64,000 nt of DNA from contig CAXXET010000006.1 of NCBI GenBank assembly GCA_963666115.2, forward strand, positions 520,574 to 584,573. Reading direction: 5' to 3'. This document shows positions 12,927 through 63,581 of this stretch, piece after piece; within the stretch, counting starts at the first letter, position 1, and every line of letters begins with the position of its first letter. Source of the DNA: Dehalococcoidia bacterium (GTDB taxonomy: Bacteria > Chloroflexota > Dehalococcoidia > UBA6926). Position numbers and translations under genes: made by a program. The notes below the pieces were generated by a model, which was not told the origin of the DNA, searched no databases, and saw nothing but the letters and a program-made list of their open reading frames with translations.

Positions 12927-12951
12927 GCCTCCACTATCATTCTGAACTAGC

Positions 12952-12977
12952 GTCATTCTGAGCGCAGCGAAGAATCT
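12952..12977 (+). repeat. Dispersed repeat family B (GTCATTCTGAGCGCAGCGAAGAATCT)
   Basis: Reverse complement of the copies at 36205, 45303 and 46501. Confidence 0.9.
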
Positions 12978-32266: not shown

Positions 32267-33697
32267 ATGACAACGGTTAGCGTGAGGGATTTGGGCCCGA
32301 TCGGGCGGGCCTCGGTGGACATCAAGCCGTTGACTGTGTTCGTCGGCCCGAACAACTCGGGCAAGTCGTACATGGCTCTGGCTATCTATTGTCTGTCCAG
32401 GACGCTTGCCGGAAGGGGACTTGCTGGCAGGATGCCATGGCGGCAATTCGAACCAAATCTCGACGACTCTATAGACCCCGAACTCCTTCTAAGGGCCGAG
32501 GAAGATATCGAGAAGATCTTCCCAGATGGTCGTTCGATCAGAGGAGGCCAGCTTCCTGACAATCCGAAGATTGGACAACTGCCACAGAGCATCCAGGCCC
32601 TCTTTGAAGGAGGGTCCCAAATGTTTGCTGTGGGTTTAGCGCAATTGCTCGAATCTGCAATCAAGCGGGTTTACGGTACTGACATAGCGAGGATTCGACG
32701 GCGCGACATTAGGGAGCAGCCTTCAAAGCTAACTATCGAAATTGAGCAGCACGCCAGCGCGTTCAAATGGGAGACGAGGGCGGCGGGTGGCGATCTCGGC
32801 ACGGAAATCTGGCAGAACAGCCTCGCGGATCAGGCATTTAACTCATACTTGCCTCAATTCGAAGACACTTCCGAGAACCCTTTGTTGGGCATGTTATTCT
32901 CCAACTTGGGGATATTCCGCCCCCCCAAAGTCTTGGAGGATGCGTACTATATGCCAGCGAGCAGGTCCGGCATTCTGCTTGGGCACAAGACTTTCTCCAG
33001 CCTCATCGTTGGTCAAGCCTCACAGGCATGGATACGCTCGTTGGAGATTCCGCGCCTTCCCGGCTTCGTGACGGATCTGATCCAGGACCTCTTGTTGATG
33101 ACTTCGGACGAACCTCATGGAACTCAACTGGACGGGATCATCGACTATCTTGAAGGCGAGATGGCTCACGGCTCAGTCAGGCTGGATGATTCTTCTGAGT
33201 ACCCATCCGTCTATTTTGAAGGCGACGCGGGCAGACTCCAGCTCCATGAGGCCTCGTCGATGGTTTCCGAAATCGCGCCCATCGTCTTGTATTTGAAGCA
33301 CATGGTTGAGCCTGGGGATATGTTCATTATCGAGGAACCGGAATCGCATGTCGATGCCGGCAACCAGCGGCGGCTTGCGCGGGCGATTGCCATGCTTGTC
33401 AACGCGGGCGTGAAAGTGCTGATTACAACGCACAGCGATTTCCTCGTCTCGCAGTTGGGCAACCTTGTCATGCTCAGCGGCATTTCGAAGCGGCGACGGG
33501 CGGCCAGACGCTACAAGGCCGAGGAAGTCCTTCAGCCAGACGACGTCGGGGTGTACATGTTTGAGCCTGGCCCGGACGGGTCTGTCGCGCGTCCGCTGGC
33601 GGTGGACGCGGAGCGCGGAATCCCGGTGGATTCGTTCACGGACGTGCATACCGGAATCTACGACGAGGCGATAGACCTGGAATACGCTGGGCGGTAG
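32267..33697 (+). CDS. ABC/AAA_15-type ATPase (defence-associated class)
   Basis: FVGPNNSGKS, PASRSG, ASSMVSE, IEEPESH, ITTHSD. Confidence 0.85.
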   Translation: MTTVSVRDLGPIGRASVDIKPLTVFVGPNNSGKSYMALAIYCLSRTLAGRGLAGRMPWRQFEPNLDDSIDPELLLRAEEDIEKIFPDGRSIRGGQLPDNPKIGQLPQSIQALFEGGSQMFAVGLAQLLESAIKRVYGTDIARIRRRDIREQPSKLTIEIEQHASAFKWETRAAGGDLGTEIWQNSLADQAFNSYLPQFEDTSENPLLGMLFSNLGIFRPPKVLEDAYYMPASRSGILLGHKTFSSLIVGQASQAWIRSLEIPRLPGFVTDLIQDLLLMTSDEPHGTQLDGIIDYLEGEMAHGSVRLDDSSEYPSVYFEGDAGRLQLHEASSMVSEIAPIVLYLKHMVEPGDMFIIEEPESHVDAGNQRRLARAIAMLVNAGVKVLITTHSDFLVSQLGNLVMLSGISKRRRAARRYKAEEVLQPDDVGVYMFEPGPDGSVARPLAVDAERGIPVDSFTDVHTGIYDEAIDLEYAGR

Positions 33698-33699
33698 AG

Positions 33700-34140
33700 G
33701 TGGACGTTCCCGCGAGACTGAACAACTGCCTGACTGATAGGTGCGAAGAAGAGGGTTGCAGTCTCAGCCTGCGTGGGATGCAGGATTCGATCAGCGTTCT
33801 GTCGATGAACTGTGTGAGGAGAACGCTGAGGGCTAAGGGGCGGACAGCCGATTTTGCCGTGCTGTCCAACAGTAGCCGGTGGGTAGCAATGATCGAACTC
33901 AAGGGCGGGCAGAACTTGAAAATCGGACAAATCGTAGAGCAGATTCAGAACGGCCTAGATATGCTCGTCAACGGGTTGGGTGATCAGATAGTCGATGAGT
34001 TCTTTCCCATTCTTGTGCATCACAGTGACCGGGATCCACGCAGAACGCTCAGCGGACGAATGATAACGTTGAGGGGCACCCAGCGGAGGATAATCGTTGC
34101 GGAATGCGGCGACAGGCTGGCACCACTTATTCGGGCCTAG
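33700..34140 (+). CDS. Small partner protein, PD-(D/E)XK-like
   Basis: ADFAVL..MIELKGG..EQI; starts 2 bp after the ATPase stop. Confidence 0.55.
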   Translation: MDVPARLNNCLTDRCEEEGCSLSLRGMQDSISVLSMNCVRRTLRAKGRTADFAVLSNSSRWVAMIELKGGQNLKIGQIVEQIQNGLDMLVNGLGDQIVDEFFPILVHHSDRDPRRTLSGRMITLRGTQRRIIVAECGDRLAPLIRA

Positions 34141-34178
34141 AATAGCGCCCCATTTTGATTGTGAATTCTCATATGGCC

Positions 34179-35657
34179 TTACCGCGCCATATAGCCGCGC
34201 TTCGCGTTCTCCCTGCGGAGGCCGGACAAGGTGTAGATGTTTGATTTCAGCATGTTGCACGGCCCGCAGAGCAGCACTCGATTCGTGATGTGATTGATTC
34301 CGCCGTCTGCGCGGGGGGTGTTGTGATCCAGTTGGAGGTAGCGCGGATCGTCGAAAGCGCGGTCACAGCCCTGGCAGCGCTGGCCGTTCTGCGCGATGAG
34401 ATGGTCGAACATCTCTTGCCGCGTCATGCGAGGGCCGGCAGGCTCCTTGAACCGCTCGGTCACCTGCAAGAAGGGTACTGCCTCCTCCGCATCGTCAGTC
34501 CGCTCCGGCGGCTCCGTGATGAAGTTGATCTGCGGATTCGGCTCCCTGAGCAGTTGCCGATTGTCCTCCATCCTCTGCTTGACGACTTCCAGCGCTCCGT
34601 CCCAAATATCCGCTCCGACCCACTGCCGACCAAGCCGCTCAGCCGCAATCGGCGTCGTGGCGCACCCCGCGAACGGATCAAGCACAACATCGCCCTCGTT
34701 GCTGCTCGCGCTTATGATGCGCTCATACAAGGCAAGCGGCTTCTGGGTGGGATAGCCGACTCGCTCTCGCTTCGATCCGCCCATTGTCTGAAGAGCATAG
34801 ACATCGTCAACAATGTCTTGAAGTGGGAGCCCCTTGGCCTCTTCGTGGTACCGCTTTAGCTTGGGCCATGCCCCTTTTGTCTTTGGCCAATAGATTCTTC
34901 CGTCACTGTCCAACTCATCCAGAACCCTGGGCGGGTTCATCCAGTGCCGCCCTTTCTCGGTCGGATTGAAGCCTCTCCAAGGAGTTCCTGTTTCGCCCTG
35001 CCTTATGCCCGAGCCAGTCAAGTCGCCCGTCCAATAGCGACCTCTCCCGTCTCCATCGTCAAACTTGAAGTACCTCTCGACGTAATCTGAATCGTAATCG
35101 CGGCGCGGATCTGTCCAGACATAGCGGTGAGACTTCGAATAGAAGAGGATAATGTCGTGAATGGGCCCAAACCGCTTCGCACTGCTGTGGGCGTGACTAC
35201 GCTTCCAAACGATCTCGTTCCGAAAGTGCTCCTGGCCGAAGATTGCGTCCATCAGGGCCTTCAGATAGTGGCTCGCTGTCGGATCGCAGTGGAGATAGAT
35301 GCTGCCGTCGCTGCGCAGAACGCGATGCATCTCGATGAGTCGGACGGCCATGAAGCAGAGAAACGCGGCGAGACCCTCGCCGTAGCCCTCTTTCACACCG
35401 TTGATGACGTTCATCACCTTCGGCCAGTCATCAGTGATCTGATCGACCCACTCGCCCTGCACATCATCGTCCCACTTCCAGCGGTCCTGGAACTTTGCGC
35501 CGCGCGCGAGGCTGTCCGGCGTTGCGTGGAAGTCGCGTCCCTTGTTGAACGGCGGGTCCGTCGCGATTAGGTGGACCGACTCGCTGTTCAACCCGCGCAG
35601 GAACGGCAGGTTGTCGCCGTGGAAGAGGGTGCGGTTGGGGACGTTTAGGTCAGTCAT
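34179..35657 (-). CDS. N6/N4 DNA methyltransferase with C-terminal HNH domain
   Basis: DPPF, YPTQKP, VLDPFAGCAT; C-terminal CQGC..LDHNTP..GG..LCGPCN..K. Confidence 0.9.
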   Translation of the reverse strand: MTDLNVPNRTLFHGDNLPFLRGLNSESVHLIATDPPFNKGRDFHATPDSLARGAKFQDRWKWDDDVQGEWVDQITDDWPKVMNVINGVKEGYGEGLAAFLCFMAVRLIEMHRVLRSDGSIYLHCDPTASHYLKALMDAIFGQEHFRNEIVWKRSHAHSSAKRFGPIHDIILFYSKSHRYVWTDPRRDYDSDYVERYFKFDDGDGRGRYWTGDLTGSGIRQGETGTPWRGFNPTEKGRHWMNPPRVLDELDSDGRIYWPKTKGAWPKLKRYHEEAKGLPLQDIVDDVYALQTMGGSKRERVGYPTQKPLALYERIISASSNEGDVVLDPFAGCATTPIAAERLGRQWVGADIWDGALEVVKQRMEDNRQLLREPNPQINFITEPPERTDDAEEAVPFLQVTERFKEPAGPRMTRQEMFDHLIAQNGQRCQGCDRAFDDPRYLQLDHNTPRADGGINHITNRVLLCGPCNMLKSNIYTLSGLRRENAKRGYMAR

Positions 35658-36204: not shown

Positions 36205-36265
36205 GGATTCTTCGCTGCGCTCAGAATGACAGTCCCGATGGATTCCGGCTTTCGCCGGAATGACA
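36205..36265. repeat. Repeat family B copy plus adjacent GGATTCCGGCTTTCGCCGGAATGAC palindromic repeat
   Basis: GGATTCTTCGCTGCGCTCAGAATGACA at 36205-36231; second element 36239-36265 shares the GGATTC..GAATGACA ends. Confidence 0.85.
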
Positions 36266-36269
36266 GGCC

Positions 36270-36839
36270 TTACTCCGCTTTGGCGGCTTCGTTCGGCTGC
36301 ATTTGTTGCCAGGCTTCTCGTTTTATGTCCATTAGCATGAAGCGGTAGCGGCCTCTGTCGGTGAAGCCTGTTTGGGTGAAGCCTGCTTTTGCGAAGGCTC
36401 TTTGGGCTCGGACGTTCCAGTCCAGGGTTTTCAGGTAGACGCGGTTTAGTTCCAGCTTGTTGAACATCCAGCTTGTTAGGAGCTTGACGGCATCCGTGCC
36501 GTAGCCGCCGTTCCAGTAGGCGCGGTCGCCGATCATGATGCCAAGCTCAGCCTCTTTGGCGCGGCGGTCAAGATCGTAGTACATGCAGTTGCCGATGTGC
36601 TTGCCCTCCGAGAGTTCGACGATGGCGAAGCGGTGGCTGCGCTTTGAGATGTAGTTGAGGTCGTCCTTGTGGATGGGCGCGTACTGCTCATAGGTCATCT
36701 TGAGGGGGTAGGCGGCGTCCAGCTCGGCAAGCTCATCGTCGGAGCGCCACAGGTAATCGTTCCACGAGTCCATCTCGGCCTTGTCTCTCAGGCCGACGCG
36801 TTCGCCTGTGACGATAAGCGGCTTAGCTATGGTCGCCAT
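36270..36839 (-). CDS. RimJ/RimL GNAT acetyltransferase
   Basis: ELGIMIGDRAYWNGGYGTDA..NVRAQRAFAKAGF. Confidence 0.88.
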   Translation of the reverse strand: MATIAKPLIVTGERVGLRDKAEMDSWNDYLWRSDDELAELDAAYPLKMTYEQYAPIHKDDLNYISKRSHRFAIVELSEGKHIGNCMYYDLDRRAKEAELGIMIGDRAYWNGGYGTDAVKLLTSWMFNKLELNRVYLKTLDWNVRAQRAFAKAGFTQTGFTDRGRYRFMLMDIKREAWQQMQPNEAAKAE

Positions 36840-37308
36840 GGGCGCTGTCCGCGTTCTCGGCCATCGCGCGAATGGCCCTGTTAAGAATTTCCACATCGGT
36901 ATCGTACGTCATCCTGCCAAGCGTGGCGGCGTCAAGCGGCATCCACTCCACACTTTCAAACTCCCCGTCGTGGTCGTCAAGGCTGCCGCCCAACGGCTCC
37001 ATGAGATAGTGATAAACCACCTTGTCGTGCAGAACGTCCTCCCGCGTGAATTGGTAGCGAACGCTGCCCAGGTCCGCCAGGATGGCCACCTCAAGGCCGG
37101 TTTCCTCCTGAACCTCGCGGCGCGCCGTTTCCTCTCGCGTTTCACCCGGCTCCGGCGTGCCTTTCGGCAATGCCCACAGCCCGGTGGTGTCGCGGCGGCA
37201 GATGACGACTTCCAGCCGCGCGTCCGGCGTGCATCGGACGATCACGCCGCCTGCGGACACATCGTGCTGCACGCCGCCGCTGCCAGGTTGTTCGTTGGTC
37301 TCCGTCAT
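36823..37308 (-). CDS. NUDIX hydrolase
   Basis: WALPKG..GETREETARREVQEETG. Confidence 0.92.
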   Translation of the reverse strand: MTETNEQPGSGGVQHDVSAGGVIVRCTPDARLEVVICRRDTTGLWALPKGTPEPGETREETARREVQEETGLEVAILADLGSVRYQFTREDVLHDKVVYHYLMEPLGGSLDDHDGEFESVEWMPLDAATLGRMTYDTDVEILNRAIRAMAENADSAHGDHS

Positions 37309-37316
37309 GTTCGCGC

Positions 37317-38387
37317 CTACCACTCTTCCTCGTAATCGTCATCGTAGTCGTCGTCGAGGTCTTCATTGATGCCGAGGTCATCATCGAAATTCTCAAAGAC
37401 GTCATCGTCTGAGCCGTCGATGAGCGGGGAAACGGCGTCCGCCGCGCTGCCGGCGGACTTGCGCAGGATCTCCGCGTTGGCCTCAAAGCTCTGCATGCTT
37501 TCGAGGGCGTCCAAGGCGAGTTCGCGAAAGCTCTCATCGGCGTGCTGTAGGAAACGGCGGAGGACGCGCTGGGCCGTGGGACCGCCGATGGCGCTGAGGG
37601 CCGTGACGACGGCGCCCTGGATTTCCGTGTTGTCCTCCATACCCATGCGCGCGAGGGCGGGGATGAGGCGCTCATCGCCGATGCGCCCGGCGGCGCCGGC
37701 GGCCTCGAACCGGACCTCCTCGGACTCGCTTTCCAACTCCTCGCGGATGTAGGTCAGCCAGAACGTGTCCGCGTTCTGCCCCATGGCGTAGAGGGCGGAC
37801 GCGCGGAGGGTTTCGCTGGCGCTGTCATAGGTCTCCAGGATAAGTTCCCGCACCTCTTCAGAGTTGAAGGCAGAGACGGCCTCGATCACGCGGCGGCGCA
37901 CCTGAAAGGACGGCTCCTGCTCGTTGCGAATCACATTGAGCAGTCCCTCACGGACGCGGTTCGCATCACGTTCAAGCAGGTCGCCAAGCTCTGCCATGAC
38001 GGCAAAACGGCCGAGCGATTGGGCGGCGACGGCCCGGACGCGCTCAGTTTCGTCAAGGAGCAGGCGCGTGAACAGCGGCTCGATCAGCGCGCGGTTCTCG
38101 CTCTCCCACAGCCCCATGATCGCGGCTTCCCTGACCTCCTCATCCTCATCCTCCATCAGGGTCATGAAGATGCGGTCAAAGCTGTAGTCGACGTTCTCCT
38201 CCGCGAGGTCCACCAACTGGCTGACGATGGAGCGGCGGTATTCGAAGTCAATGTCACGGAGCGTTTCGATGACGTGCCCCAACTCGTCGCGGTCGGGGTC
38301 GGATAGCTCGGCCAGCGCGGCAGCCGTCACGTTGCCGGGGTCCTGGCGTATTGTGCTAATGACGCTCTCGATGCCGTCCGACTGCAT
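37317..38387 (-). CDS. HEAT-repeat protein with acidic C-terminal tail
   Basis: Repeated EEVR.AA..L motifs. Confidence 0.85.
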   Translation of the reverse strand: MQSDGIESVISTIRQDPGNVTAAALAELSDPDRDELGHVIETLRDIDFEYRRSIVSQLVDLAEENVDYSFDRIFMTLMEDEDEEVREAAIMGLWESENRALIEPLFTRLLLDETERVRAVAAQSLGRFAVMAELGDLLERDANRVREGLLNVIRNEQEPSFQVRRRVIEAVSAFNSEEVRELILETYDSASETLRASALYAMGQNADTFWLTYIREELESESEEVRFEAAGAAGRIGDERLIPALARMGMEDNTEIQGAVVTALSAIGGPTAQRVLRRFLQHADESFRELALDALESMQSFEANAEILRKSAGSAADAVSPLIDGSDDDVFENFDDDLGINEDLDDDYDDDYEEEW

Positions 38388-38411
38388 CGCATCGTCCTCC
38401 GCTGCGTGTTC

Positions 38412-39758
38412 TCAGTCAGACTTGGGGGCGATGGAAACGCCGGCGCAGAGGATGGCAGGCGTGGACAGCGATCCGCCCAACTCTGTCGTTTCGGCCCCGA
38501 TGGACATGATGTCCTTGAGGATGTCATAGATATTGCAGTGGAGCATGGTGTCCTTGACGCGGCCAATGACCTCTCCGCCTTGCACGCGGTAGCCGAGCAG
38601 GATGTTGCCGCCCGCGTCGCCGCCCAGCACGTTGCCTTGCCCCATGCCAATGAGCCGCTCAACTATGACGCCATCATTCATCGTGCGGAGCATGTCATCA
38701 AACACGGCGTCGCCGGGCGCGATGCTGAGGTGGGTTGTGCCTGCGCCGGGCATCGCGCCGAGTCCGCGCGAGGCGCTGCTCGTCGGCTCGACGCCCGCCT
38801 TAGACGCCGACTGGAGTTCGTACAGGATTGTGCGGAGCACGCCATCCTCGACGAGGAATTGGCGGCGGCTGGGCACGCCCTCATCGTCGTAGGAGCGGGA
38901 TGGCGGCTTGAGGGGCAGGGTAGGGTCGTCGATGATGGACAGCCGCGCGTCAAAGACCTGCTCGCCGATGCGGCCTCCCAGCGGCGATGAGCCTTGCAGC
39001 ACCGTCTTGCCGTTGATGCCGGAGAGGAAGGGGCCGAGCAGGACGGATGAGACGGCGCGGGGCATGAAGAGGACGGGCATGCGACCGGCGGGCGTGGGGG
39101 CGATGTCCTTGCCCCATTCGATCTGCTGGCGCATGCCGTTGATGTGCCGCTGCATACCCCAATCCGGGCTGCATCCGCGGTCGCCCTCACCGATGAAGAA
39201 CATATCCGTGCCGCGAATGAGCGTGCCGGAGACGTACAAGCCAAAGCCGCTCTTGCTGTGGCCGAAACCGACGCCGTTGGAGTTGAGGAACGCGAAGCTG
39301 CTTGTGCTGCGCGTCAGGCTCGCGCCGTACAGCGCCTCCGGCTCCAGCGGCTTGGCCTCGTCCAACAGCCGCCGCCCCGCGTCCACCATCGCCTCCGTCG
39401 TGACCTCCTCGATGGCGGGGTCGTAGGTTTCGATGGCGGGCGTGTCCGGCGACGGGCTGGGCAGGGCAAGTTCGGATTCGGGGCCGTAGCGGGCGAGTTC
39501 AATGGCGCGGTCGACAAGCTCCTCCGCCTTGTCGGGATCGTTTGTTGATGAGACACCCATGCGCCCATCGACGAAGACGCGAATGCCGAGTCCCCACGAC
39601 TGGCGTGTTGAGATTTCCTTGAGTTTTTCCGCTTCGAAGCTGACGGGCGTGGATTCGCCCTCACCGACCATGACCTCGGCGGCGGTGGTCTTGCCGCGCG
39701 CGTAGGCGAGCGTTCGCTCAAGCAGCGCGAGGTCAGCGTCTCGTGGCGCTCCGGTCAT
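38412..39758 (-). CDS. pmbA: PmbA/TldE family protein
   Basis: YDDEGVP..LVEDGVL, no HExxxH; follows tldD. Confidence 0.88.
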   Translation of the reverse strand: MTGAPRDADLALLERTLAYARGKTTAAEVMVGEGESTPVSFEAEKLKEISTRQSWGLGIRVFVDGRMGVSSTNDPDKAEELVDRAIELARYGPESELALPSPSPDTPAIETYDPAIEEVTTEAMVDAGRRLLDEAKPLEPEALYGASLTRSTSSFAFLNSNGVGFGHSKSGFGLYVSGTLIRGTDMFFIGEGDRGCSPDWGMQRHINGMRQQIEWGKDIAPTPAGRMPVLFMPRAVSSVLLGPFLSGINGKTVLQGSSPLGGRIGEQVFDARLSIIDDPTLPLKPPSRSYDDEGVPSRRQFLVEDGVLRTILYELQSASKAGVEPTSSASRGLGAMPGAGTTHLSIAPGDAVFDDMLRTMNDGVIVERLIGMGQGNVLGGDAGGNILLGYRVQGGEVIGRVKDTMLHCNIYDILKDIMSIGAETTELGGSLSTPAILCAGVSIAPKSD

Positions 39759-39761
39759 CGT

Positions 39762-41129
39762 CTACGCGCCCCCGACGAGGCAGTTCTGGATGCGGATGTG
39801 GGGGCTGCCGTTGGAGACGGGCAGGGGGGACTGCCCGGCCTTGCCGCATCCGCCGCCCTGGTTCATATCGAGATCGTTGGCGACGGCGTCCAGGTTCTCC
39901 AGCGTGGTGAAGACGTTGCCGGAGAGCACGACGGGGCGCAGCAGCTCCTCGATGCGCCCGTTGCGGATGCGGTACGCCTCGCCTGCGGAGAAGGTGAACA
40001 TCTCCATGGACGTCATGCCGCCGTACCAGTTCTTGCAGTAGACACCGTCCTTGACTTCTGAAATCAGTTCCTCAGCGGTGGCCGCGCCCGGCTCGATGAA
40101 CGTGTTGGTCATGCGGACGATGGGCGCGAATCGATAGTCCATGGCGCGGGCGTTGCCCGTCACGCCCTCGCCCATCTTGCCCGCTGTCTCCCGCGAGTGC
40201 AGCCGCCCCACCAGCACGCCCTCGCGGATCAGGTCCGACCGCTGTCCGGGTATGCCCTCGTCGTCGTAGTCATACGAGCCGCGGAGGCCGGGGACGGAGG
40301 CGCCGTCCACGATGTTCAGGTGCTGGCCGCCGAATCGCCGCCCCAGCACCATGATTTCCTTCATTTGGTCGTTCTCATAGACGAAGTCCGACTCCGAGAG
40401 GTGGCCGAACGCCTCATGCGCGAACACGCCGCCCAGGATGGGGTCGCAGATGACCGTGTACTCGCGCCCCTCAACCTGTGGCGCGTCAAGCAGCGCGACA
40501 GCCTTTTCCGCGATCTCGCGCATCTCATCGTGCCGGCCCTCGAGAACGGCGTAGTCGCCCAGGCTGCCGACGCTGACGCCGTACTGCTGGACGTCCGCGT
40601 CCCTGCGGGCCACGGCGCGGGCGTTAAAGGTGACGTCCACGCGCTCCTGGCGGATGTATGAGCCCTCCGAGTTGGCGAAGTGGGTTACGCGGCGGCGGTT
40701 GCCGGAGGCGATGAACGTGCTCTGGATGTCCGGCACGGCCCACATGGCCTCGACGTATTCCTGCAAGAGGCCGACCTTGCGGTCAAGCGGCACGAGGAAC
40801 GGGTCATTGTCCAGGACGGGGGCGGGTTCGGCGATGACCGGCTCGCTGCGGACAAGCTCGCCGCCCTCGCCGGATGCAAGGCGCGCTTGCCGCACCGCCG
40901 TCGCGACGCGCTCGCGGAGGTCGTCCGACCGGGTGAACGTGACGAAACCCCAGCCGCCGTTGACGTATGCGCGCGCCGCCCCGCCCCTGCTGGTCGAGCC
41001 GCCGATGTCGTCGATCTCATGGCCGCGCATGGAGATGTGGTTCGTGTCCAGCTCCTCCAGCCGCAGCTCGATGTAATCCGCGACGTGGCCGCTGAGGGCC
41101 TGCGCCATTTCGTCACGCATGGGCGTCAT
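39762..41129 (-). CDS. tldD: TldD metalloprotease
   Basis: HEAFGH, RMTNT, GCGK.GQ..PVS.GSP. Confidence 0.9.
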   Translation of the reverse strand: MTPMRDEMAQALSGHVADYIELRLEELDTNHISMRGHEIDDIGGSTSRGGAARAYVNGGWGFVTFTRSDDLRERVATAVRQARLASGEGGELVRSEPVIAEPAPVLDNDPFLVPLDRKVGLLQEYVEAMWAVPDIQSTFIASGNRRRVTHFANSEGSYIRQERVDVTFNARAVARRDADVQQYGVSVGSLGDYAVLEGRHDEMREIAEKAVALLDAPQVEGREYTVICDPILGGVFAHEAFGHLSESDFVYENDQMKEIMVLGRRFGGQHLNIVDGASVPGLRGSYDYDDEGIPGQRSDLIREGVLVGRLHSRETAGKMGEGVTGNARAMDYRFAPIVRMTNTFIEPGAATAEELISEVKDGVYCKNWYGGMTSMEMFTFSAGEAYRIRNGRIEELLRPVVLSGNVFTTLENLDAVANDLDMNQGGGCGKAGQSPLPVSNGSPHIRIQNCLVGGA

Positions 41130-41176
41130 CCATGCCTAGAATGAACGGGAAGGTCATGGAGAAAGTCTAGCATGCG

Positions 41177-41896
41177 ATGACGACGAGACGCCGCCGCCCG
41201 ACCGTCCGCGCCAGGAGGACGCAGGATGTCTACGCGCTGCTGCATGAGCAGAACGGCGAGCGGCCATGGTCCAGGCGCGCGGCGCCGATGGACGAGCTGA
41301 TCTACACGGTACTCTCACAGCACACGTCCGACCTGAATACCGACCGCACATTCGCGGACCTGCGCGCCGCGTTTCCGACGTGGCGGGAAATCGTCGATGC
41401 GCCGACGGAGGCCGTGCAGGAGGCGATCAGGCGAGGCGGGCTGTCACGGATCAAGGCGCCGCGCATCCAGGCCATCCTGCGCGAGATCGAGCGGCAGCGC
41501 GGGGAGTTCAGCATCGACTTTTTGGCGGAGATGCCGTTCGATGAGGCGCGCGCGTGGCTGCTGAGCCTGCCGGGGGTGGGGGAGAAGACGGCGGCGTGCG
41601 TGCTGCTGTTCAGCCTGGGCTTGCCCGCGCTGCCCGTCGATACGCACGTCCACCGCGTCTCAGGCCGCCTCGGACTGATCCCCAAGAAAATGAACGCGGA
41701 CAAGGCGCACTACGCCCTGGAGTCCATGCTGGACGATTCGCAGGTGTACCAGTTCCACGTCGATCTAATAGAGCACGGGCGTAAAGTCTGCCACGCCAGG
41801 CTCCCTACCTGCGGGGGTTGCGCCCTTTCGGCGCTGTGCCCAAGCAGCCTGGACCGGCGCGGGAGGGTCTTCCAGGGCGGAGATGCGCCGGATTAG
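41177..41896 (+). CDS. nth: Endonuclease III (HhH-GPD, Fe-S cluster)
   Basis: LSQHTSD, LPGVGEKTA, PVDTHVHR, C-x6-C-x2-C-x5-C. Confidence 0.9.
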   Translation: MTTRRRRPTVRARRTQDVYALLHEQNGERPWSRRAAPMDELIYTVLSQHTSDLNTDRTFADLRAAFPTWREIVDAPTEAVQEAIRRGGLSRIKAPRIQAILREIERQRGEFSIDFLAEMPFDEARAWLLSLPGVGEKTAACVLLFSLGLPALPVDTHVHRVSGRLGLIPKKMNADKAHYALESMLDDSQVYQFHVDLIEHGRKVCHARLPTCGGCALSALCPSSLDRRGRVFQGGDAPD

Positions 41897-42136
41897 GGCG
41901 TCCAGCCGGCGACCGAAGAAGTGGATTTCGGCCTTGGTCCTGCGGCGGCGGGTGTGTTTCGCGATGGTGCGGGCAATCTCCAGGCCGGTGGGGAGCCTTC
42001 TGCCGTGGTTTACGCCGCGGGTGGCGACGACGTCTTTCATGACGTCGATGGCGACCAGGCACTTAGCACCGCGATTGGTGCGGGCGATTACGGAGCGCTG
42101 GTAGTGGAGTCTGCGGGCCTGGCTGCCACGGCTCAT
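41765..42136 (-). CDS. Hypothetical Arg/Lys-rich small protein (123 aa), overlaps the nth 3' end
   Basis: AAAGGAG-7nt-ATG at 42136; strongly C/G-ending codons; MSRGSQARRLHYQRSVIARTNRG.. Confidence 0.55.
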   Translation of the reverse strand: MSRGSQARRLHYQRSVIARTNRGAKCLVAIDVMKDVVATRGVNHGRRLPTGLEIARTIAKHTRRRRTKAEIHFFGRRLDALIRRISALEDPPAPVQAAWAQRRKGATPAGREPGVADFTPVLY

Positions 42137-42202
42137 TTGGGTTCTCCTTTCGTGGTGTCCCTTGTGGTCTCCTTTCGGTTCGTTCCGGTTTGGCGGGTCT
42201 TG

Positions 42203-42485
42203 GGGGTGCATCGGCGCCGGACTCCAGTCATTTAGTTGAACCGTCATCGGTTCGGCGCAGTGGGAGCTTCGTTCCATCGCGCCGGCCACCGTTTTAGGCC
42301 GCGCTCCGGTCTCCAGATATTCGCGCCAGAAGCTACCCTGACGCCGGACGACTCTCGCTGCGCCGCGATTGCCGCCCCCCTATACGCCCCGTCAGCCCAC
42401 CGTCACTGGCCGCCCGTGGCCACGAGCAAACCCGTCGTGGTTTCCTGGCCGGGAAACCAGAATCCATTTGGCGCCGATGCACCCC
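42203..42485 (-). ncRNA. Putative large structured RNA closed by a 16-bp terminal stem
   Basis: GGGGTGCATCGGCGCC (42203-42218) is the exact reverse complement of 42470-42485; several internal hairpins. Confidence 0.55.
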
Positions 42486-42747
42486 TGCAGGGAACGCCCT
42501 CCTTTTTCGCGCCCCCAGGGATTGTTGTGACGGCTCGGGTGTCGACTTTACCCTCGCCGCCGTCTGGATGGCCTCGTTCGATGGGGTGAGGTTAGTACAG
42601 GGGTTTTGTTTGGGGCAAGGGGTGGTGTCACATGGGGGGGGCACGTTTGCCCTGAGTCTCTTCGGCCTGGGCCTGTTGAAGGGCATGATCGGAGGGTATA
42701 CTTGGGCGCGGGCGGCGAAGAGTCGCTGTGAAGGGAGACAATAAGGT

Positions 42748-43101
42748 ATGGGCGCGTTTCGCGTTGGAATTACGGTATCGAATCGAGAGGGAACCCGCTC
42801 TCGCGACGTGCAGGCTCTCGTTGACACAGGCGCGTTCTACAGCCTCATGCCGTCGAGCACCCTGGCCGAACTCGGCATCGAGCCGACACGGACGAGAACG
42901 TTCAACGTCGCCGACGGGCGCAGCATTGACATGCCTGTCGGCGAGGCCATGGTTGAGTATGGGGGCGATCAGGTGTCGACCTATGTCGTCTTCGGCCCGG
43001 AGAACGCCAGGCCGCTCCTGGGCGCGTACACGCTGGAGGCGCTTGCCCTGCAGGTAAATCCCCTCAAGGGGGAACTCATCCAGGCCGAGTTGACTTTGTA
43101 A
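42748..43101 (+). CDS. Clan AA (retropepsin-like) aspartyl protease
   Basis: ALVDTGA..LLGAYTLEAL. Confidence 0.85.
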   Translation: MGAFRVGITVSNREGTRSRDVQALVDTGAFYSLMPSSTLAELGIEPTRTRTFNVADGRSIDMPVGEAMVEYGGDQVSTYVVFGPENARPLLGAYTLEALALQVNPLKGELIQAELTL

Positions 43102-43356
43102 GGCAGGGCAACTGCCCTGCGAGAGTTGGGGATTGTGCCGACGCGCACGACGGAGTTCGAGTTGGTGAGCGGGGAGACGACACGGTATGAGCGCGGGGAG
43201 GCCGTCGTTCGGATAAACGGCTTTGCCCAGGTGACGCCGGTCGTCTTTGCCGAGGATGAGGCCGAGCCGCTCATCGGTGTCGTGACGCTGGAGCAGTTGG
43301 AGCTTGCGGTGGATTCTGTGGCGGGGGAGTTGATAGCGGCGCGGCCGCGGTTGTGA
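43102..43356 (+). pseudogene. N-terminally truncated aspartyl protease paralog (no DTG)
   Basis: LRELGIVPTR..PLIGVVTLEQL aligns with the upstream gene; in frame after its TAA. Confidence 0.65.
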
Positions 43357-43365
43357 CGGAAACGA

Positions 43366-45240
43366 TTACTCTTGCTTGGGCGGCCACTTCTTGGCGAAGC
43401 GCAGGATCAGTTCGAAGATGCTGGGGGTAGACTCAGTGCCAAGCACGACGTCTTGAACTTGATGCGGTAGCGCCGTGATAGGGGCGTAGTGAGCACCAGG
43501 GCGCCGTTGCCTGTTAACAGTCCCCAAAGATTGCGCCAGTTCAACCGCTACTTCCCAATTGAAGCGGCCATCCGGTGCGTTTGAACGGGCAATACTTCTG
43601 TTTATATATTCAATCCATTTCCCGATGCGATTTCTCTCATTAGGATTAAATCTCTTCGGGGCCTTCAAATGTTGCGCGATGAATGCTTCAACCGCATTAG
43701 AGTAGAATAATACTATCTGTGCTGGCCGCGTGTCTCGCCGGGGAAAAGCGACCCCTGCTAGGAGCAAGTATTCTAGGGTATCTTCACTGAGGTATACCAC
43801 AACGTCACCAAGCCGTTCGCTTAGGAAATTCCTGGCGTTTTCTTCTCTGCGAACATTAGCGATCTCCGCCAGTTCCAACAAAGTAGCACCAATCTGAGCT
43901 GGACTGCCTATCAGAAGGGCATTACTCCCCGCTTCTTGAGGTATTGGCAATTCGTGCGAATCATCAGGCACCAATTCAGTCACCGCCGTCGCCTCATTTT
44001 GTCGGCTTCTCCTGAGTGCTCTGGTTCCATCCAAATAACCCAGTTGGGACAGCCAATAAAGTGGAAGATCGGTTATACGATTGCTAAAAGCGGCTGGCCC
44101 GACGCCAAACAAATCATTGGTTTTCTGGGAACCTAGGGTTGCCAGAACCCCCAGCCGCAAATATTCTCCGTCGCCACTATCGGCATCCAAATGTGGGGCG
44201 ATGAATGACAGTGCTGTTACTCCATTCGGCCATCCCGAAAACAAGTCTACCCATTCACTTTCCAGGGTATTTTTGTCCAGAGTTTCCCACAGTGCCGCAA
44301 TACGACCAAACTCCCATGCCCAATGTTCCTTCGAACCTATAGGTAGATGGAGGTGGGTGCTTGTATTCTCGGATGTGGCTTCTTCTTCGAGGGCATCATC
44401 TTCGAGAAAGTCGGATTCTTCAATAAGCCACGCGCACATGTCAAGCATATTGGTCCAGTCATCCCAATTCAATTCTGCAGGGGCTGCGATGGCTCCCCTG
44501 ATGAGCGCGGTCACGAAATGGCGATGCCAGTTGCTCAAAGGGTTCCAAGCATCAAACATTACCCAGTGGTTACAGAACGCTGCTAAGGTACGCTGGTACG
44601 TGCTTTGGGTGTCACTCTTATAAGAACCGCCCTGTTGAGTAACCTGCCAATCTGGTCCAATGCCGCTCGTACCCGGCTGAAACAGATTAGTTACGAAAAA
44701 ACCTTCGGGCATCGATTCCCCGACTATAGCACGCGAAACATAGTCGACAGAAACATTGTAGCCTTCCATGTGCAATTGTACCCACTCAACTGCATGAAGC
44801 GGTGAGTTGGAGTCGAGAAATCTCTTGTAGTGCGGGCCATTGTCCGGATCATTCAGAATTCCAGGGTTTTCTTGAGTTTTTCGATATAGGATCTTCCTAA
44901 TATCCTTTAGCCATTTCGGTTCATAGTCGGAAAGCAGATCGGGGCAACGATTCAGCGCATCCGCTATCAGCGAGTGCAGAGCCTCCATCTTTTCCGTCCA
45001 GTCAGGCTCGTCGGGATAGGGGAGATGAACGCGGTCAAACATGAATTTGGCATGAGCGATTGCAATCATATGTATCGCTGTTTCTGGGCCAGCATCACCA
45101 TCCTTGATTGTCTCAATCGTCTCCTTAATGTATTCGGAAGATTGGTTGATGTATTCGATCCCCGTGCTCTTTAGAACGTGCCTTACATAGTCATCGAAGA
45201 CATCCTGGTTGGTTTCCGGCGTGCGGTCATCGGTGGTCAT
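43366..45240 (-). CDS. Large hypothetical protein with possible C-terminal HEPN (Rx4H) domain
   Basis: 624-aa ORF, visibly more AT-rich than its flanks; NRQRRPGAH near the C-terminus. Confidence 0.6.
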   Translation of the reverse strand: MTTDDRTPETNQDVFDDYVRHVLKSTGIEYINQSSEYIKETIETIKDGDAGPETAIHMIAIAHAKFMFDRVHLPYPDEPDWTEKMEALHSLIADALNRCPDLLSDYEPKWLKDIRKILYRKTQENPGILNDPDNGPHYKRFLDSNSPLHAVEWVQLHMEGYNVSVDYVSRAIVGESMPEGFFVTNLFQPGTSGIGPDWQVTQQGGSYKSDTQSTYQRTLAAFCNHWVMFDAWNPLSNWHRHFVTALIRGAIAAPAELNWDDWTNMLDMCAWLIEESDFLEDDALEEEATSENTSTHLHLPIGSKEHWAWEFGRIAALWETLDKNTLESEWVDLFSGWPNGVTALSFIAPHLDADSGDGEYLRLGVLATLGSQKTNDLFGVGPAAFSNRITDLPLYWLSQLGYLDGTRALRRSRQNEATAVTELVPDDSHELPIPQEAGSNALLIGSPAQIGATLLELAEIANVRREENARNFLSERLGDVVVYLSEDTLEYLLLAGVAFPRRDTRPAQIVLFYSNAVEAFIAQHLKAPKRFNPNERNRIGKWIEYINRSIARSNAPDGRFNWEVAVELAQSLGTVNRQRRPGAHYAPITALPHQVQDVVLGTESTPSIFELILRFAKKWPPKQE

Positions 45241-45302: not shown

Positions 45303-45328
45303 AGATTCTTCGCTGCGCTCAGAATGAC
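45303..45328 (-). repeat. Repeat family B copy
   Basis: AGATTCTTCGCTGCGCTCAGAATGAC. Confidence 0.9.
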
Positions 45329-45358
45329 GGCGGTGGGCTGCTTTGACAGGGGCGCACC

Positions 45359-46500: not shown

Positions 46501-46527
46501 GGATTCTTCGCTGCGCTCAGAATGACA
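46501..46527 (-). repeat. Repeat family B copy
   Basis: GGATTCTTCGCTGCGCTCAGAATGACA. Confidence 0.9.
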
Positions 46528-46559
46528 GATGGTTGACGTGTTGGCGGCGGGGGGGGGCA

Positions 46560-46877
46560 TTAGCGGACGGCGTGGACCTCCAGGTGGACGCCCTCGTGCT
46601 CCTGGAGGCATCCGATCACGTCGAAGAGGTTGCGGGCATTAGGGTTTCCCTGTGGGCCGAGCATGCGCATGAGGCTCTTGGGCGGCTTGTCGACGCGGGA
46701 TGCCAACTCGTCGAAACCAATCGTCGCGTTGATGTAGTCTCGCAGGATGATCTTGCCGGGTTCGACATCACCTGCCAGCAAACACTCAATGGCCTCCCTG
46801 AGCAGCCCATCACGAAAGGCAGGGTCTTGTTGCGCCCGCGCCTGAACCGTCTCCCTGAAACTCCTTGTAAGTGGCAT
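46560..46877 (-). CDS. Addiction-module antitoxin (HTH)
   Basis: LRDYINATIGF..LA..SLMRML..GNP..NLF. Confidence 0.85.
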   Translation of the reverse strand: MPLTRSFRETVQARAQQDPAFRDGLLREAIECLLAGDVEPGKIILRDYINATIGFDELASRVDKPPKSLMRMLGPQGNPNARNLFDVIGCLQEHEGVHLEVHAVR

Positions 46878-46879
46878 TC

Positions 46880-47209
46880 CTATTCCTCCTGCCGCTTTCG
46901 GCGTCGATACTCAGCCCACAACTCCTTTGCCGATTCTATGTCCCCCTGTTGCCGCGACTTCGTTCCGCCTGCTAGCAGGACGATTAGCATCTCCCCGTCT
47001 CTTCCAAAGTACACTCGGTAACCGGGTCCAAAATCGATACGGCATTCAAGGACTCCGCTTCCAACGCCTCGCACGTTTGAAAGGTTCCCTGCCTCCAAGC
47101 GGGCAAGCGCTGTTCCGACCCGGGCTCCGGCAATGGAATCAAGCCGATCAAACCATCGCCCGAACCGGCTTCGTCCTGACTCGTCGATGTATTCGCGCAG
47201 TTCAATCAC
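46880..47209 (-). CDS. RelE/ParE-family addiction-module toxin
   Basis: GVGSGVLECRIDFGPGYRVYFGRDG..LLAGGTK..Q..DI. Confidence 0.9.
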   Translation of the reverse strand: MIELREYIDESGRSRFGRWFDRLDSIAGARVGTALARLEAGNLSNVRGVGSGVLECRIDFGPGYRVYFGRDGEMLIVLLAGGTKSRQQGDIESAKELWAEYRRRKRQEE

Positions 47210-47234: not shown

Positions 47235-47349
47235 CGTTGGGCGCACTGCTGCTTTTGCCCGCCCGTATGAGCGCGTCCCTTCCTGATAAAATGGGTGTTC
47301 ACGCGATACACCAAGCAGCAACGCGACTGACCGACGAGGGACAAGCGCC

Positions 47350-48390
47350 ATGAGCATTCGGGCGGGGATTATCAATGTTACGGGGTATGCGGGGATGGAG
47401 CTTGCGCGGATTTTGCGCGGGCATTCCGACGTGGAGTTGACCGCCGTCACGGGCCGATCCGCCGCCGGCGAGCAGCTCGACGAGTACCTGCCGCACCTGG
47501 ACAAGATGGAGCTGCCCATCGTCGAGCAGGATGAGCTCGATGACGTGGACGTGGCGTTCTCCGCACTGCCGCACAAGGCGTCGGCGGAGGCGTGCGTGGC
47601 GATGCTGGGCAAGAATGCGCGCGTCGTCGATATCGCCGCCGATTTCCGGCTGCACAACGTGGAGGAGTACGAGGCGTGGTACCAGCCGCACCCCGCGCCC
47701 TCTTTCCTTGAAGAGGCGGTCTACGGCCTGCCGGAACTGCACCGCGACGCGATCAGAGAGGCGCGGCTTGTCGCCAACCCGGGCTGCTATCCGACGGGCG
47801 CGCTGCTCGGACTCGCGCCCCTTGTTAAGGAAAGGCTGATCGAGCCGAACGTGATCGTTGATTCAAAATCGGGCGTGTCCGGCGCGGGGCGGTCGCTCAG
47901 CCAGACCGTCCATTTCTCCGAGGTGAACGAGAACGTGTCCGCCTACGGGCTGTCCGGCCATCGCCACCTGCCGGAGATCACGCAGGAGCTGGCGGAGATC
48001 GACCCGTCGCAGAAGTGGAACGTCACGTTCACGCCGCACCTAATTCCGATGACGCGCGGCATCCTGAGCACCATCTACGTGACGCCATCGGACGACCGCC
48101 TGCCAGCGTCTCCTGAGGGGGCGCAGCGCCTGCGCGACCTCTTTGCGGACTACTACGCCGCCGAGCCGTTCGTGCGCGTGACGCAGAAGCCGCCGCAGAC
48201 CAAGCAGACGTCCGGCAGCAACTTCACACAGGTCTACCCGGTGATCGATCAGCGGACGGGGCGGATCATCATCGTGACGGCGCTGGACAACCTTGTTAAG
48301 GGGGCGGCGGGGCAGGCGATCCAGAACATGAACCTGATGTTTGGGGCCCCAGAGACAGAGGGGCTGGAGGAGTTCGCGCTGTTTCCCTAG
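47350..48390 (+). CDS. argC: N-acetyl-gamma-glutamyl-phosphate reductase
   Basis: TGYAG, ANPGCYPT, SGVSGAGR, HRHLPEI, DNLVKGAAGQAIQN. Confidence 0.95.
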   Translation: MSIRAGIINVTGYAGMELARILRGHSDVELTAVTGRSAAGEQLDEYLPHLDKMELPIVEQDELDDVDVAFSALPHKASAEACVAMLGKNARVVDIAADFRLHNVEEYEAWYQPHPAPSFLEEAVYGLPELHRDAIREARLVANPGCYPTGALLGLAPLVKERLIEPNVIVDSKSGVSGAGRSLSQTVHFSEVNENVSAYGLSGHRHLPEITQELAEIDPSQKWNVTFTPHLIPMTRGILSTIYVTPSDDRLPASPEGAQRLRDLFADYYAAEPFVRVTQKPPQTKQTSGSNFTQVYPVIDQRTGRIIIVTALDNLVKGAAGQAIQNMNLMFGAPETEGLEEFALFP

Positions 48391-50686: not shown

Positions 50687-51646
50687 ATGTGGGCATACAT
50701 TGTGCGCCGGCTTTTGCTGGCAATACCGACGCTGTTGGGAGTCACGGTCGTTGTCTTTCTGATCATGCGGATTGCGCCGGGCGACCTGGCGCTGATGATC
50801 ATTTGCGGCACGGGCGAGAGCTGCGCTTTCGATGAGGCCGCGCTTGATCGCGTCCGCGAGGAGCTCGGTCTGAATAAGCCGCTCTACGTACAGTACTTCG
50901 ACTGGCTATTTGGCCTCGTGACGCTGGACTTCGGGCGGTCGTTCTTCTACAACGCGGAGATGTCAGAGCTGCTTGCGCGGAAGGCCCCGCTGAGCATTCA
51001 GGTTGGGCTGATGGGGTTGGTGTTCGGCAGCCTTTTGGGCATTGCGGGCGGTGTCATCGCGGCTCTCAAGCAGGACACGTTTACGGACTACTTCATTCGC
51101 GGCACGGCGATCCTGGGCATTTCCGTTCCTACATTCTGGAGCGGGATGATGCTGATCCTGATCTTCGTGCGGATGTTTGACTGGATTCCGCGGCAGGGCT
51201 ACGTCCCGATCTGGGAAGACCCGATTGCCAACCTGGCGCAACTAGTTTGGCCTGCGCTGATCATCGGCCTCGGCTTCCTCATGGGAGTGCCGCTCCGCAT
51301 GATGCGGGCAACGATGCTGGAGGTCATGCGCGAGGACTATGTGCGCACGGCGCGGTCCAAGGGACTCAAGGAGCGGGTGATCATCGTTCGCCATGCAATG
51401 CGCAACGCTCTCATTCCCGTGCTCACGTTGATTGGGATATTCCTGCCGATCACGGTGACGGGACTGGTGGTGACAGAGCAGGTGTTTGGCCTGCCCGGCG
51501 TGGGGCGCATGATGGTGGACGCCATCAACCAGCGGGACTACCCCGTCGTTCAACTGGTGGTCACCATGACGGGATTCGCGGTGGTGCTGGCGAACCTGGG
51601 CGTGGACATGCTGTACGGGTGGCTCGATCCGCGGATCCGGTACTAG
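50687..51646 (+). CDS. Opp/Dpp ABC permease (OppB-like), copy 1
   Basis: DYVRTARSKGL..HAMRNA..LDPRIRY. Confidence 0.92.
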   Translation: MWAYIVRRLLLAIPTLLGVTVVVFLIMRIAPGDLALMIICGTGESCAFDEAALDRVREELGLNKPLYVQYFDWLFGLVTLDFGRSFFYNAEMSELLARKAPLSIQVGLMGLVFGSLLGIAGGVIAALKQDTFTDYFIRGTAILGISVPTFWSGMMLILIFVRMFDWIPRQGYVPIWEDPIANLAQLVWPALIIGLGFLMGVPLRMMRATMLEVMREDYVRTARSKGLKERVIIVRHAMRNALIPVLTLIGIFLPITVTGLVVTEQVFGLPGVGRMMVDAINQRDYPVVQLVVTMTGFAVVLANLGVDMLYGWLDPRIRY

Positions 51647-51814: not shown

Positions 51815-52774
51815 ATGTGGGCATATGTAATACGCCGCATATTATTGGCGGTGCCGACGATTCTTGGCGTGACCATCGTGGTCTTCCTGATCATGCGCAT
51901 CGCGCCTGGCGACGTGGCCATCATGATGCTTGGCGGCGGCGAAGGCGGCGGCGGAATCGATCCGGAGGCGCTGGAGAGAATCCGAACCGAGTTAGGCCTG
52001 AATAAACCGCTCTATGAGCAGTACCTGGGCTGGGTGTACGGGCTCCTCACCCTCGACTTTGGCAAGTCCTTCTTCTACAACGCCGACATGGATCGGCTGA
52101 TTGCGAGGAAGGCTCCCCTTAGCCTCCAGGTTGGCGTGATGGGCCTCATCATCGGCAGCACTCTTGGGATCGCCGGCGGAGTTGTCGCCGCGCTCAAGCA
52201 GGACACATTCTTCGATTACCTCATTCGCGGCATCGCGATTCTCGGCATCTCCGTCCCGACGTTCTGGAGCGGCATGATGCTGATTCTCATCTTTGTCCGG
52301 GTGTTTGACTGGATTCCCCGGCAAGGGTACATCCCGATCTGGGAGGATCCGATTGCCAACCTGGCGCAGTTGATTTGGCCGGCGCTGATCATCGGCCTTG
52401 GATTCCTGATGGGCGTGCCGCTGCGCATGATGCGCGCCACCATGCTTGAAGTCATGCGGGAGGACTACATCCGCACGGCGCGCGCGAAGGGCCTCAAGGA
52501 GCGGGTGATCATCGTGCGCCACGCCATGCGGAACGCCTTGATCCCGGTGCTTACCCTGATCGGCATCTTCTTGCCCATCACGGTGACCGGCCTCGTCGTG
52601 ACGGAGCAGGTCTTCGGCCTCCCGGGCATTGGGCGCATGATGGTGGACTCCATAAACCAGCGAGATTTCCCGGTCGTTCAGCTCGTTGTGACGCTCACCG
52701 GCTTTGCCGTCGTCGCCGCGAACCTGGGCGTGGACCTGCTGTACGGTTGGCTTGATCCACGGATCCGGTACTAG
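51815..52774 (+). CDS. Opp/Dpp ABC permease (OppB-like), copy 2
   Basis: Same length and highly similar to copy 1. Confidence 0.92.
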   Translation: MWAYVIRRILLAVPTILGVTIVVFLIMRIAPGDVAIMMLGGGEGGGGIDPEALERIRTELGLNKPLYEQYLGWVYGLLTLDFGKSFFYNADMDRLIARKAPLSLQVGVMGLIIGSTLGIAGGVVAALKQDTFFDYLIRGIAILGISVPTFWSGMMLILIFVRVFDWIPRQGYIPIWEDPIANLAQLIWPALIIGLGFLMGVPLRMMRATMLEVMREDYIRTARAKGLKERVIIVRHAMRNALIPVLTLIGIFLPITVTGLVVTEQVFGLPGIGRMMVDSINQRDFPVVQLVVTLTGFAVVAANLGVDLLYGWLDPRIRY

Positions 52775-61984: not shown

Positions 61985-61988
61985 AGAA

Positions 61989-63218: not shown

Positions 63219-63293
63219 GTCTGACCGAACCCCCTCGCACTTCCCACGTGATGATAGAGTAACATAGTATCGACCTAACGTTCGGGGAACACA

Positions 63294-63581
63294 ATGACGA
63301 ACCGACGGAAAGGAGAATGTGTCGTGGATGTGGCCATGACGGACACCGAGCATTACAACTACGGACATGACCGGGGAAGCATCGCCGCGCATCTGAACGC
63401 GGCCATGTGGAACCTACAACGGGTCCAGGAGATACGTGAGTTCCTTGTGAACAGGATGGACGACGATGATACTCGGTACGATCACCCCGACCGGTTGGCC
63501 TTGGATGCCGTCGTTTCTGAGGTCAATGACGCGTTGCCCCTAATTCAAAAGGCGTATGACGCCAATCTGGAAGGCTACTAG
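63294..63581 (+). CDS. Hypothetical protein
   Basis: ORF with AAGGAG SD nearby; start uncertain. Confidence 0.5.
   Translation: MTNRRKGECVVDVAMTDTEHYNYGHDRGSIAAHLNAAMWNLQRVQEIREFLVNRMDDDDTRYDHPDRLALDAVVSEVNDALPLIQKAYDANLEGY

Follow-up and report, generated by a model that had tools for sequence, protein, structure and literature searches.

What is the nature of an inverted-repeat element that lies upstream of the gene for a small, rare basic protein? This question is raised by positions 42137 to 42747 of the window, that is the whole stretch of 64 kb from an uncultured Dehalococcoidia genome that we analysed and to which all coordinates refer. A repeat search places the left arm, GGGGTGCATCGGCGCC, at 42203..42218 (it would be the 3' arm if an RNA were made from the minus strand) and the right arm at 42470..42485. 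As claimed in a preliminary description of the locus, the repeat is perfect, with 100% complementarity over 16 nt (16/16); the arms are separated by 251 nt and span 283 bp overall. The interior (42219..42469), delimited by folding and by alignment with a relative called P0007, contains several local hairpins. The inner hairpins proposed earlier can all be traced in the sequence and recur in its predicted fold, and the proposed extension of the minus-strand stem past a 4-nt bulge, with its G-U pairs, appears in the minimum-free-energy (MFE) fold. Conservation continues past the right arm into a flank at 42486..42525. Taken together, the conserved non-coding element extends over at least about 330 nt (42195-42525), and its core is the 251-nt segment closed by the 16-bp repeat.

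The element occupies part of a 610-nt spacer that separates the basic-protein gene (minus strand) from a divergent retropepsin-like gene (plus strand, start at 42748). Between the repeat and the start codon of the basic-protein gene, a direct-repeat search and base composition define a leader (42137..42202, minus strand) without any U, in which two GGAG boxes (42172-42169 and 42147-42144, minus strand) are found within a 16-nt direct repeat whose copies are 25 nt apart. On the plus strand, 42136-42209 is the longest A-free run of the window (74 nt vs 63 nt for the next one), and the codons of P0007 over the leader region are likewise A-free at readable positions. Since the coding strand has no T in the 74 nt before the ATG, a standard -10 box is impossible there, and the promoter is expected in or beyond the element. 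The remainder of the spacer (42526..42747) contains the upstream hairpin and the weak promoter-like site of the preliminary description, and a run of eight G (G8, 42634-42641). The hairpin, GACGGC..GCCGTC, is indeed present as a pair in the sequence. The TTGCCC-18-TAACCT promoter (42618-42613 / 42594-42589, minus strand) fared less well: the letters are there, but they give only 7/12 matches and the site was reported by neither of two promoter scans. More generally, no sigma-70-like promoter was found in the spacer either by the standard scan or at a relaxed threshold of at least 8/12, in a lineage whose promoters are uncharacterised. A terminator scan found no minus-strand terminator-like site between the element and the basic-protein gene. 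Besides, the G8 run of the spacer and a G9 run at 46549-46557, at the start of ORF 46533-47021, are possible slipped-strand sites; runs of at least eight G occur only four times in the window.

The ORF downstream of the element had been described as an orphan basic ORF (41765-42136) of 123 residues. Homologues and a host-like GC3 support a real gene, but with a true length of about 91 aa. The core of the gene (41864..42136, minus strand, residues 1-91) was delimited by codon-position GC and by the homologues P0001-P0004; its GC content by codon position (0.64/0.52/0.82) is host-like, while that of residues 92-123 (41765..41863, minus strand) is not. The only three close homologues, with 99, 79 and 77% identity, are all 123 aa long, whereas the more distant P0004 (56% identity) has 91 aa and ends at residue 91. 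Moreover, the neighbouring nth gene ends at 41896, so that the ORF and nth overlap convergently by 132 nt (41765-41896), and the last 32 codons of the ORF are a read-through into nth antisense. Because of the end of P0004, the loss of host-like GC beyond residue 91 and the antisense overlap with nth, we take the basic-protein gene to be real and its product to be about 91 aa long; conservation of nth alone explains why P0001-P0003 retain the tail.

The family counts five known sequences, with conservative changes among its members. Beyond its own cluster, a profile search of 1.84 billion representatives added only P0004; two repeat proteins that it also returned match by chance. No family was found for the protein in Pfam, NCBIfam, PHROG or PADLOC, none of the five members has a Pfam match at E up to 10, and an Atlas search gave no usable match. 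Searching 185,579 species genomes with two peptide patterns, which would miss distant forms such as P0004, revealed no homologue. The AlphaFold model is all helical, with low confidence (pLDDT 52). Residues 58-91 show a weak local likeness to the end of the histone-fold chain CENP-S; given an E of 0.85 over 55 residues, which is chance level, and no backing from Pfam or the low-confidence model, we see no support for a histone-fold identity.

To place the locus in its genomic context, we used a scan based on nth, which returned 29 loci, 13 of them from Dehalococcoidia genomes in which nth is 83-86% identical. The window is collinear with these relatives from about 36300 to 41848, and collinearity resumes at about 46561 (L002-L004) or at 47278-47350 (others). 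The sequence from 41849 to about 46560 or 47277 is thus an island of 4.7-5.4 kb that is absent between nth and argC in the 13 relatives, and these breakpoints place both the element and the basic-protein gene on it. The element is absent 3' of nth in 29/29 loci. We read the nth-argC spacer of eight relatives, and in seven of them argC begins 70-125 nt after the nth stop. In addition to the basic ORF and the repeat element, the island carries a retropepsin-like gene and its truncated paralogue, a 624-aa orphan ORF and a gene for a leucine-rich-repeat protein. The retropepsin-like aspartic protease gene (42748-43101) has a DTG motif, with PF13975 and TIGR03698 just under cut-off, and the paralogue (43126-43356) encodes 76 aa that are 45% identical to the C-terminal half of the full gene product. 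The orphan ORF (43366-45240, minus strand), without match in Pfam, NCBIfam, PHROG or PADLOC, has a GC content of about 0.50 vs 0.65 for the host and was probably acquired recently. No recombinase, invertase or transposase was found among the 52 large ORFs of the 64-kb window or among the island ORFs.

Several observations on the surroundings deserve mention in their own right. The nth-argC spacer is a hotspot for strain-specific islands: the related locus L001 carries there a different island of about 4.5 kb (L001 5672-10210) with membrane-protein paralogues, as well as a 225-nt duplicate of the nth 3' end (L001 6358-6582) that is 80% identical to 41624-41848 of the window. The C-terminal tail of nth has 15 residues after Ser224 in the window vs 3-4 in relatives. 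A REP-like dispersed hairpin repeat, the 28-mer GGATTCTTCGCTGCGCTCAGAATGACAG, has four copies in the window (12950-12977 on the minus strand, 36205-36232, 45303-45330 and 46501-46528) vs 0 expected, and is also found in L001 (6675-6744); two of the copies flank the leucine-rich-repeat gene, and similar hairpins of the GGAATC/GATTCC type follow nth in L007, L009 and L013. Elsewhere in the window, defence-like genes at 32267-35657 and 61247-63392 encode an AAA_15/AAA_21 ATPase, a DNA methylase fused to an HNH nuclease and a TdeIII-type restriction enzyme beside a methylase. Two adjacent ABC permease genes (50687-51646 and 51815-52774), both of 319 aa and with identical domain layout, are probably a tandem duplication.

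Could the element belong to a class already described? The earlier statement that it matches no standard RNA family was borne out against Rfam 15: no model matched at gathering score, the window yielding two tRNAs only, and within 42137-42747 none of 4227 models matched either strand at E up to 10. A protein-coding reading of 42137-42747 was rejected on three grounds: GC3 of the spacer ORFs is not coding-like (0.65-0.69 vs 0.83-0.90 in host genes), neither of the two long ORFs matches Pfam, and P0007 does not preserve the frame. The minus-strand ORF 42333-42827 gave no match as a protein query, and tblastn of P0007 against the element requires two frames. Retron, bridge-RNA and guide-RNA readings were also rejected, because the partner enzyme is missing: there is no reverse transcriptase domain among the ORFs scanned, the gene downstream of the element encoding the 91-aa protein without family, and no IS110-type recombinase or TnpB/IscB in the window.

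By its terminal inverted repeats and lack of coding capacity the element resembles a MITE, and by its inverted repeats flanking a short intergenic segment (251 bp, in a divergent spacer) it resembles an inverton. However, its flanks, TCTTG and TGCAG, have only the dinucleotide TG in common and form no target-site duplication, and a second copy was found neither in the 64-kb window nor in the 29 related loci (268 kb) nor in phage or plasmid collections. The preliminary description had considered many copies with target-site duplications as the mark of a MITE; since the sequence searched holds no extra copies, there is no sign of a multi-copy MITE.

By using the spurious plus-strand ORF 42236-42589 as a query in a protein search, we obtained P0007, a 141-aa entry from a 4135-nt contig with 49% identity over 92 residues. 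P0007 reads as a spurious protein, translated straight through a homologous element. The arms can be recognised in it as GVHRRR (left) and G-T-DAPL (right), 89 codons apart as in the window, and its middle matches the window only in another frame. We back-translated P0007 to IUPAC letters, which leaves about one third of the bases ambiguous, and aligned it to the window with a method that favours matches. With these reservations, P0007 aligns to 42119-42525 with a score of 287, compared to a mean of 1.1 and a maximum of 36 for 12 control segments, and is identical at 184/215 readable positions (86%). The left arm is identical at 9/9 readable positions and the right arm at 9/10, the exception being 42473 (G in the window, A in P0007). 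Identity is high at 42254-42304 (27/28), 42346-42392 (18/19), 42393-42455 (35/37) and in the flank 42486-42525 (19/21), where the P0007 reading frame ends; it is lower at 42219-42253 (15/20), 42305-42345 (14/18) and 42456-42469 (2/5), and reaches 32/38 in the leader (42137-42202). Mismatches therefore cluster, with 7/124 in conserved blocks vs 18/81 in variable blocks, the blocks having been chosen after seeing the data. Relative to the window, P0007 has indels of +1, +1, -2, -2, -1, -1, +3, +2 and +1, whose placement is uncertain; the segment has kept its orientation, and the arms their exact spacing. Because identity is high while the frame is broken by indels, the element behaves as conserved non-coding DNA. 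We conclude that it is conserved in a second lineage, as a non-coding and unevenly conserved sequence, as far as can be judged from a single relative known from a back-translated protein. No start of the basic-protein gene is readable in the antisense of the P0007 N-terminus, so that the link between element and gene is unproven in that relative.

How exceptional is such a repeat? Perfect 16-mer inverted pairs within 400 nt occur once in the window vs a mean of 0.05 in first-order Markov shuffles, only 2/60 of which contain any such pair, and no perfect 16-mer pair with a gap above 100 nt was found in the 268 kb from the 29 related loci. The repeat is thus unusual for a window of this size, yet about one such pair is expected by chance per 2-Mb genome. 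Folding energies are only moderately below those of shuffles and alike on both strands: the z-score is -3.86 (minus) and -3.51 (plus) for 42190-42500, and -2.47 (minus) and -1.90 (plus) for the interior 42219-42469. For the entire putative leader on the minus strand (42620-42100), it is -1.43, no better than shuffles, and the MFE structure of this transcript omits the closing helix.

The preliminary description had argued for a minus-strand RNA from the G-U pairs that extend the stem. This argument does not hold, as an equally good extension exists on the plus strand: there, the stem runs bulge-free to 21 pairs with four G-U (42201-42221 / 42467-42487), and a second, nested helix (42254-42274 / 42346-42364) has three more G-U pairs. 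The changes seen in P0007 point in both directions. In the minus-strand MFE structure, 14/99 pairs have a readable change, six being surely broken and none surely kept, while in the plus-strand structure 9/95 pairs are changed, one being broken and four kept by wobble. Among helices shared by the two strands, three of the hairpins proposed earlier have one-sided changes (42239, 42282 and 42425); these would be C-A mismatches in a minus-strand RNA but G-U pairs in a plus-strand RNA, and hence favour the plus strand. In contrast, the changes at 42407 and at 42473, in the arm, favour the minus strand; at 42473, where the partner codon is still Arg, the change from G to A would leave a G-U pair in a minus-strand RNA but a C-A mismatch in a plus-strand RNA. 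The lone compensatory candidate (42221/42467, A-T to C-G) hinges on the placement of a 1-nt gap, and an alignment one point lower gives G-G instead. A single degenerate homologue thus offers no secure compensatory change, which is too little for applying the test suggested earlier, whereby homologues without covariation would speak against an RNA.

Folding in context gave a similarly divided picture. The closing helix has a probability of 0.97-1.00 in seven of eight minus-strand contexts (0.46 in the eighth), and of 0.00-0.03 on plus-strand transcripts that reach 42620 or beyond. Once the ambiguous bases of the relative are filled by parsimony, 12-16 of the 16 closing pairs form on either strand, with a mean fold energy of -159.0 kcal/mol on the plus strand and -162.8 kcal/mol on the minus strand. 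Sense-strand purine bias was uninformative as a strand marker, with a mean of 0.503 over 36 genes. Perfect pairing over 16 bp, free of wobble, characterises DNA repeats no less than RNA stems. The P0007 changes break pairs on both strands.

The reading that we rank first, tentatively and at less than even chances, is that the element is a structured 5' leader of the basic-protein mRNA, made from the minus strand. Transcription would start upstream of the right arm, somewhere in 42486-42620, and the RNA is predicted to close into a multi-hairpin domain through the 16-bp helix. What would follow in the transcript is visible in the sequence: 66-74 nt that are rich in A and C, lack U and include two GGAG boxes, then the ATG. 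The domain may act in cis on the expression of the basic-protein gene, in the simplest versions as a feedback binding site for the basic protein or as a double-stranded processing or stability element. The layout fits a leader, with the element 5' of the gene, on the same strand and with no terminator between. Such a leader is suggested by a basic-protein gene that is real, a promoter that is forced into or beyond the element, and a non-coding sequence conserved in P0007. In the folding models, the arm change at 42473 and the probabilities of the closing helix would also fit the minus strand. Against it, there is no recognisable promoter, six minus-strand pairs are broken in P0007 and the z-score of the whole leader is -1.43, without the closing helix. 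A more specific proposal is an RNA-protein module, in which a structured RNA of about 285-330 nt with a closing helix of 16-21 bp would be encoded beside, and bound by, the new 91-aa basic helical family; a narrow group of uncultured Dehalococcoidia would carry this module on an island specific to the strain. We regard it as distinctly improbable. Of the preliminary interpretation as a whole, the lack of an Rfam match, of coding capacity and of further copies in the sequence searched is upheld, as is conservation, whereas the strand argument is not.

Alternatively, the element may work at the level of DNA, which we consider possible, if on the unlikely side. The arms would then be protein recognition sites, either for a recombinase that flips the 251-bp segment as a switch between the divergent genes, or for a DNA-binding protein, possibly the basic protein itself, that loops the spacer. 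Such a role is consistent with a perfect repeat whose outer boundary is sharp, located between two divergent genes at 66 nt from the start of one of them, and with arms that are conserved rather than covarying in P0007, at identical spacing. The inner-hairpin changes, which break pairs on either strand, are expected if RNA pairing is unselected, and the position of the basic-protein promoter, at or beyond 42210, would also suit a promoter within a flippable segment. Nevertheless, neither the 52 large ORFs of the window nor the island ORFs include a recombinase, invertase or transposase (a distant, globally acting enzyme being possible), and no promoter-like site is found inside the segment near either arm, its AT-richest inner end (42229-42247) being the least conserved part. 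Moreover, the window and P0007 share one orientation, the P0007 repeat has a mismatch at the DNA level, and long inner blocks are about 95% identical, which is more than a promoter needs. The other strand offers a further possibility, namely a plus-strand RNA. It could be a structured small RNA or an antisense RNA, beginning within the 5' part of the basic-protein gene and running over the ribosome-binding site of that gene, or else an extended leader for the retropepsin-like gene (42748). The bulge-free helix of 21 pairs, the nested helix, the four one-sided changes that stay paired vs one broken, and the comparable fold energies of the relative on both strands all agree with it. We nonetheless judge it rather unlikely: the 74 A-free nt exclude a -10 box, so its promoter would sit inside the basic-protein gene, the closing helix is practically lost once the transcript reaches 42620, the 42473 change breaks the helix on this strand, and no terminator-like site follows the right arm, a 4-bp stem with five T at about 42488-42507 being under the 5-pair minimum of the scan.

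The two remaining explanations do without a selected function of the element. Correia and ERIC elements are carried along and transcribed in bacteria, and ours might similarly be a MITE-like relic that landed in the leader of the basic-protein gene in a common ancestor and is perhaps transcribed, without a selected function of its own. Its length of 283 bp, terminal inverted repeats with a sharp outer edge, decaying inner ends and lack of coding capacity suit this idea, as does a strain-specific island with decaying genes such as the truncated second retropepsin copy and the low-GC orphan ORF. The absence of a second copy, of a target-site duplication and of a transposase in the sequences searched speaks against it, together with a conservation that goes on outside both arms and is uneven inside them, and we hold this explanation to be more doubtful still. 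Lastly, the repeat could have arisen by chance in a neutral spacer, its similarity to P0007 reflecting recent common descent only. The expectation of one such 16-mer pair per 2 Mb (0.05 per 64 kb) and the modest z-scores leave room for chance. Yet both arms were kept while P0007 differs at 31/215 readable positions and by at least nine indels, the mismatches cluster (in blocks defined post hoc), the arm spacing is exactly preserved, and a non-coding spacer of 610 nt is long for genomes in which nth and argC are mostly 70-125 nt apart. Of all explanations, this one seems to us very improbable.

If the element is an RNA, it would add a structured leader that is large and unclassified, as well as a new family of small basic proteins, to Chloroflexota, in which, to our knowledge, almost no regulatory RNA has been studied experimentally; a literature search on Dehalococcoidia noncoding RNA found nothing specific to the lineage. 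As a DNA switch, it would give a first indication that phase variation occurs in the group; a literature search found no report on invertons in Chloroflexota. So far, about five protein sequences out of billions and a single homologous element are known, and this tiny distribution limits the general impact until more copies are found. A methodological lesson is that a strand argument drawn from G-U pairs in a single sequence did not hold.

How does the element compare with known systems? In retrons, the RNA is closed by an inverted repeat and the reverse transcriptase gene lies directly downstream. Like retron msr-msd, IS110 bridge RNA and TnpB/IscB guide RNAs, the element is a structured non-coding region adjoining a gene on mobile or accessory DNA, but it has no partner enzyme in the window and its neighbour encodes a 91-aa protein. 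OLE, GOLLD, ROOL and HEARO are large orphan bacterial RNAs, all of them Rfam families. The element shares with them its size class, closure by a long-range helix and location on accessory DNA, and differs by matching 0/4227 Rfam models, by a very narrow distribution and by having no covariation support. Correia, ERIC and BOX are bacterial MITEs that reside in untranslated regions and fold in mRNA. Similarly, the element is repeat-bounded, non-coding and a few hundred bases long, and would form a long double-stranded stem if transcribed; unlike them, it is known as a single copy without target duplication, and its flanks and inner blocks are unevenly conserved. As in invertons, a short intergenic segment beside a gene start is enclosed by a perfect pair of inverted repeats, whereas there is no recombinase in the 64 kb, no promoter-like site inside and only one orientation in both known copies; one report notes that a promoter enclosed by inverted repeats is in many cases not an inverton (PMC11602134).

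The comparison that bears on our preferred reading, a minus-strand 5' leader, is with autoregulatory leaders. Ribosomal-protein leaders and other protein-binding autoregulatory leaders are structured 5' leaders that regulate the downstream gene. The element departs from them in matching no Rfam leader, in the size of its domain (283 nt), in a closing helix that is perfect and unusually long, in having no covariation support and in preceding the gene of a protein without known family. Like them, however, it would lie on the strand of the gene it precedes, here one for a small basic protein, after the probable promoter region and ahead of the ribosome-binding site, with no terminator in between; it is predicted to form a multi-hairpin domain with a long-range closing helix, and it is conserved in a relative.
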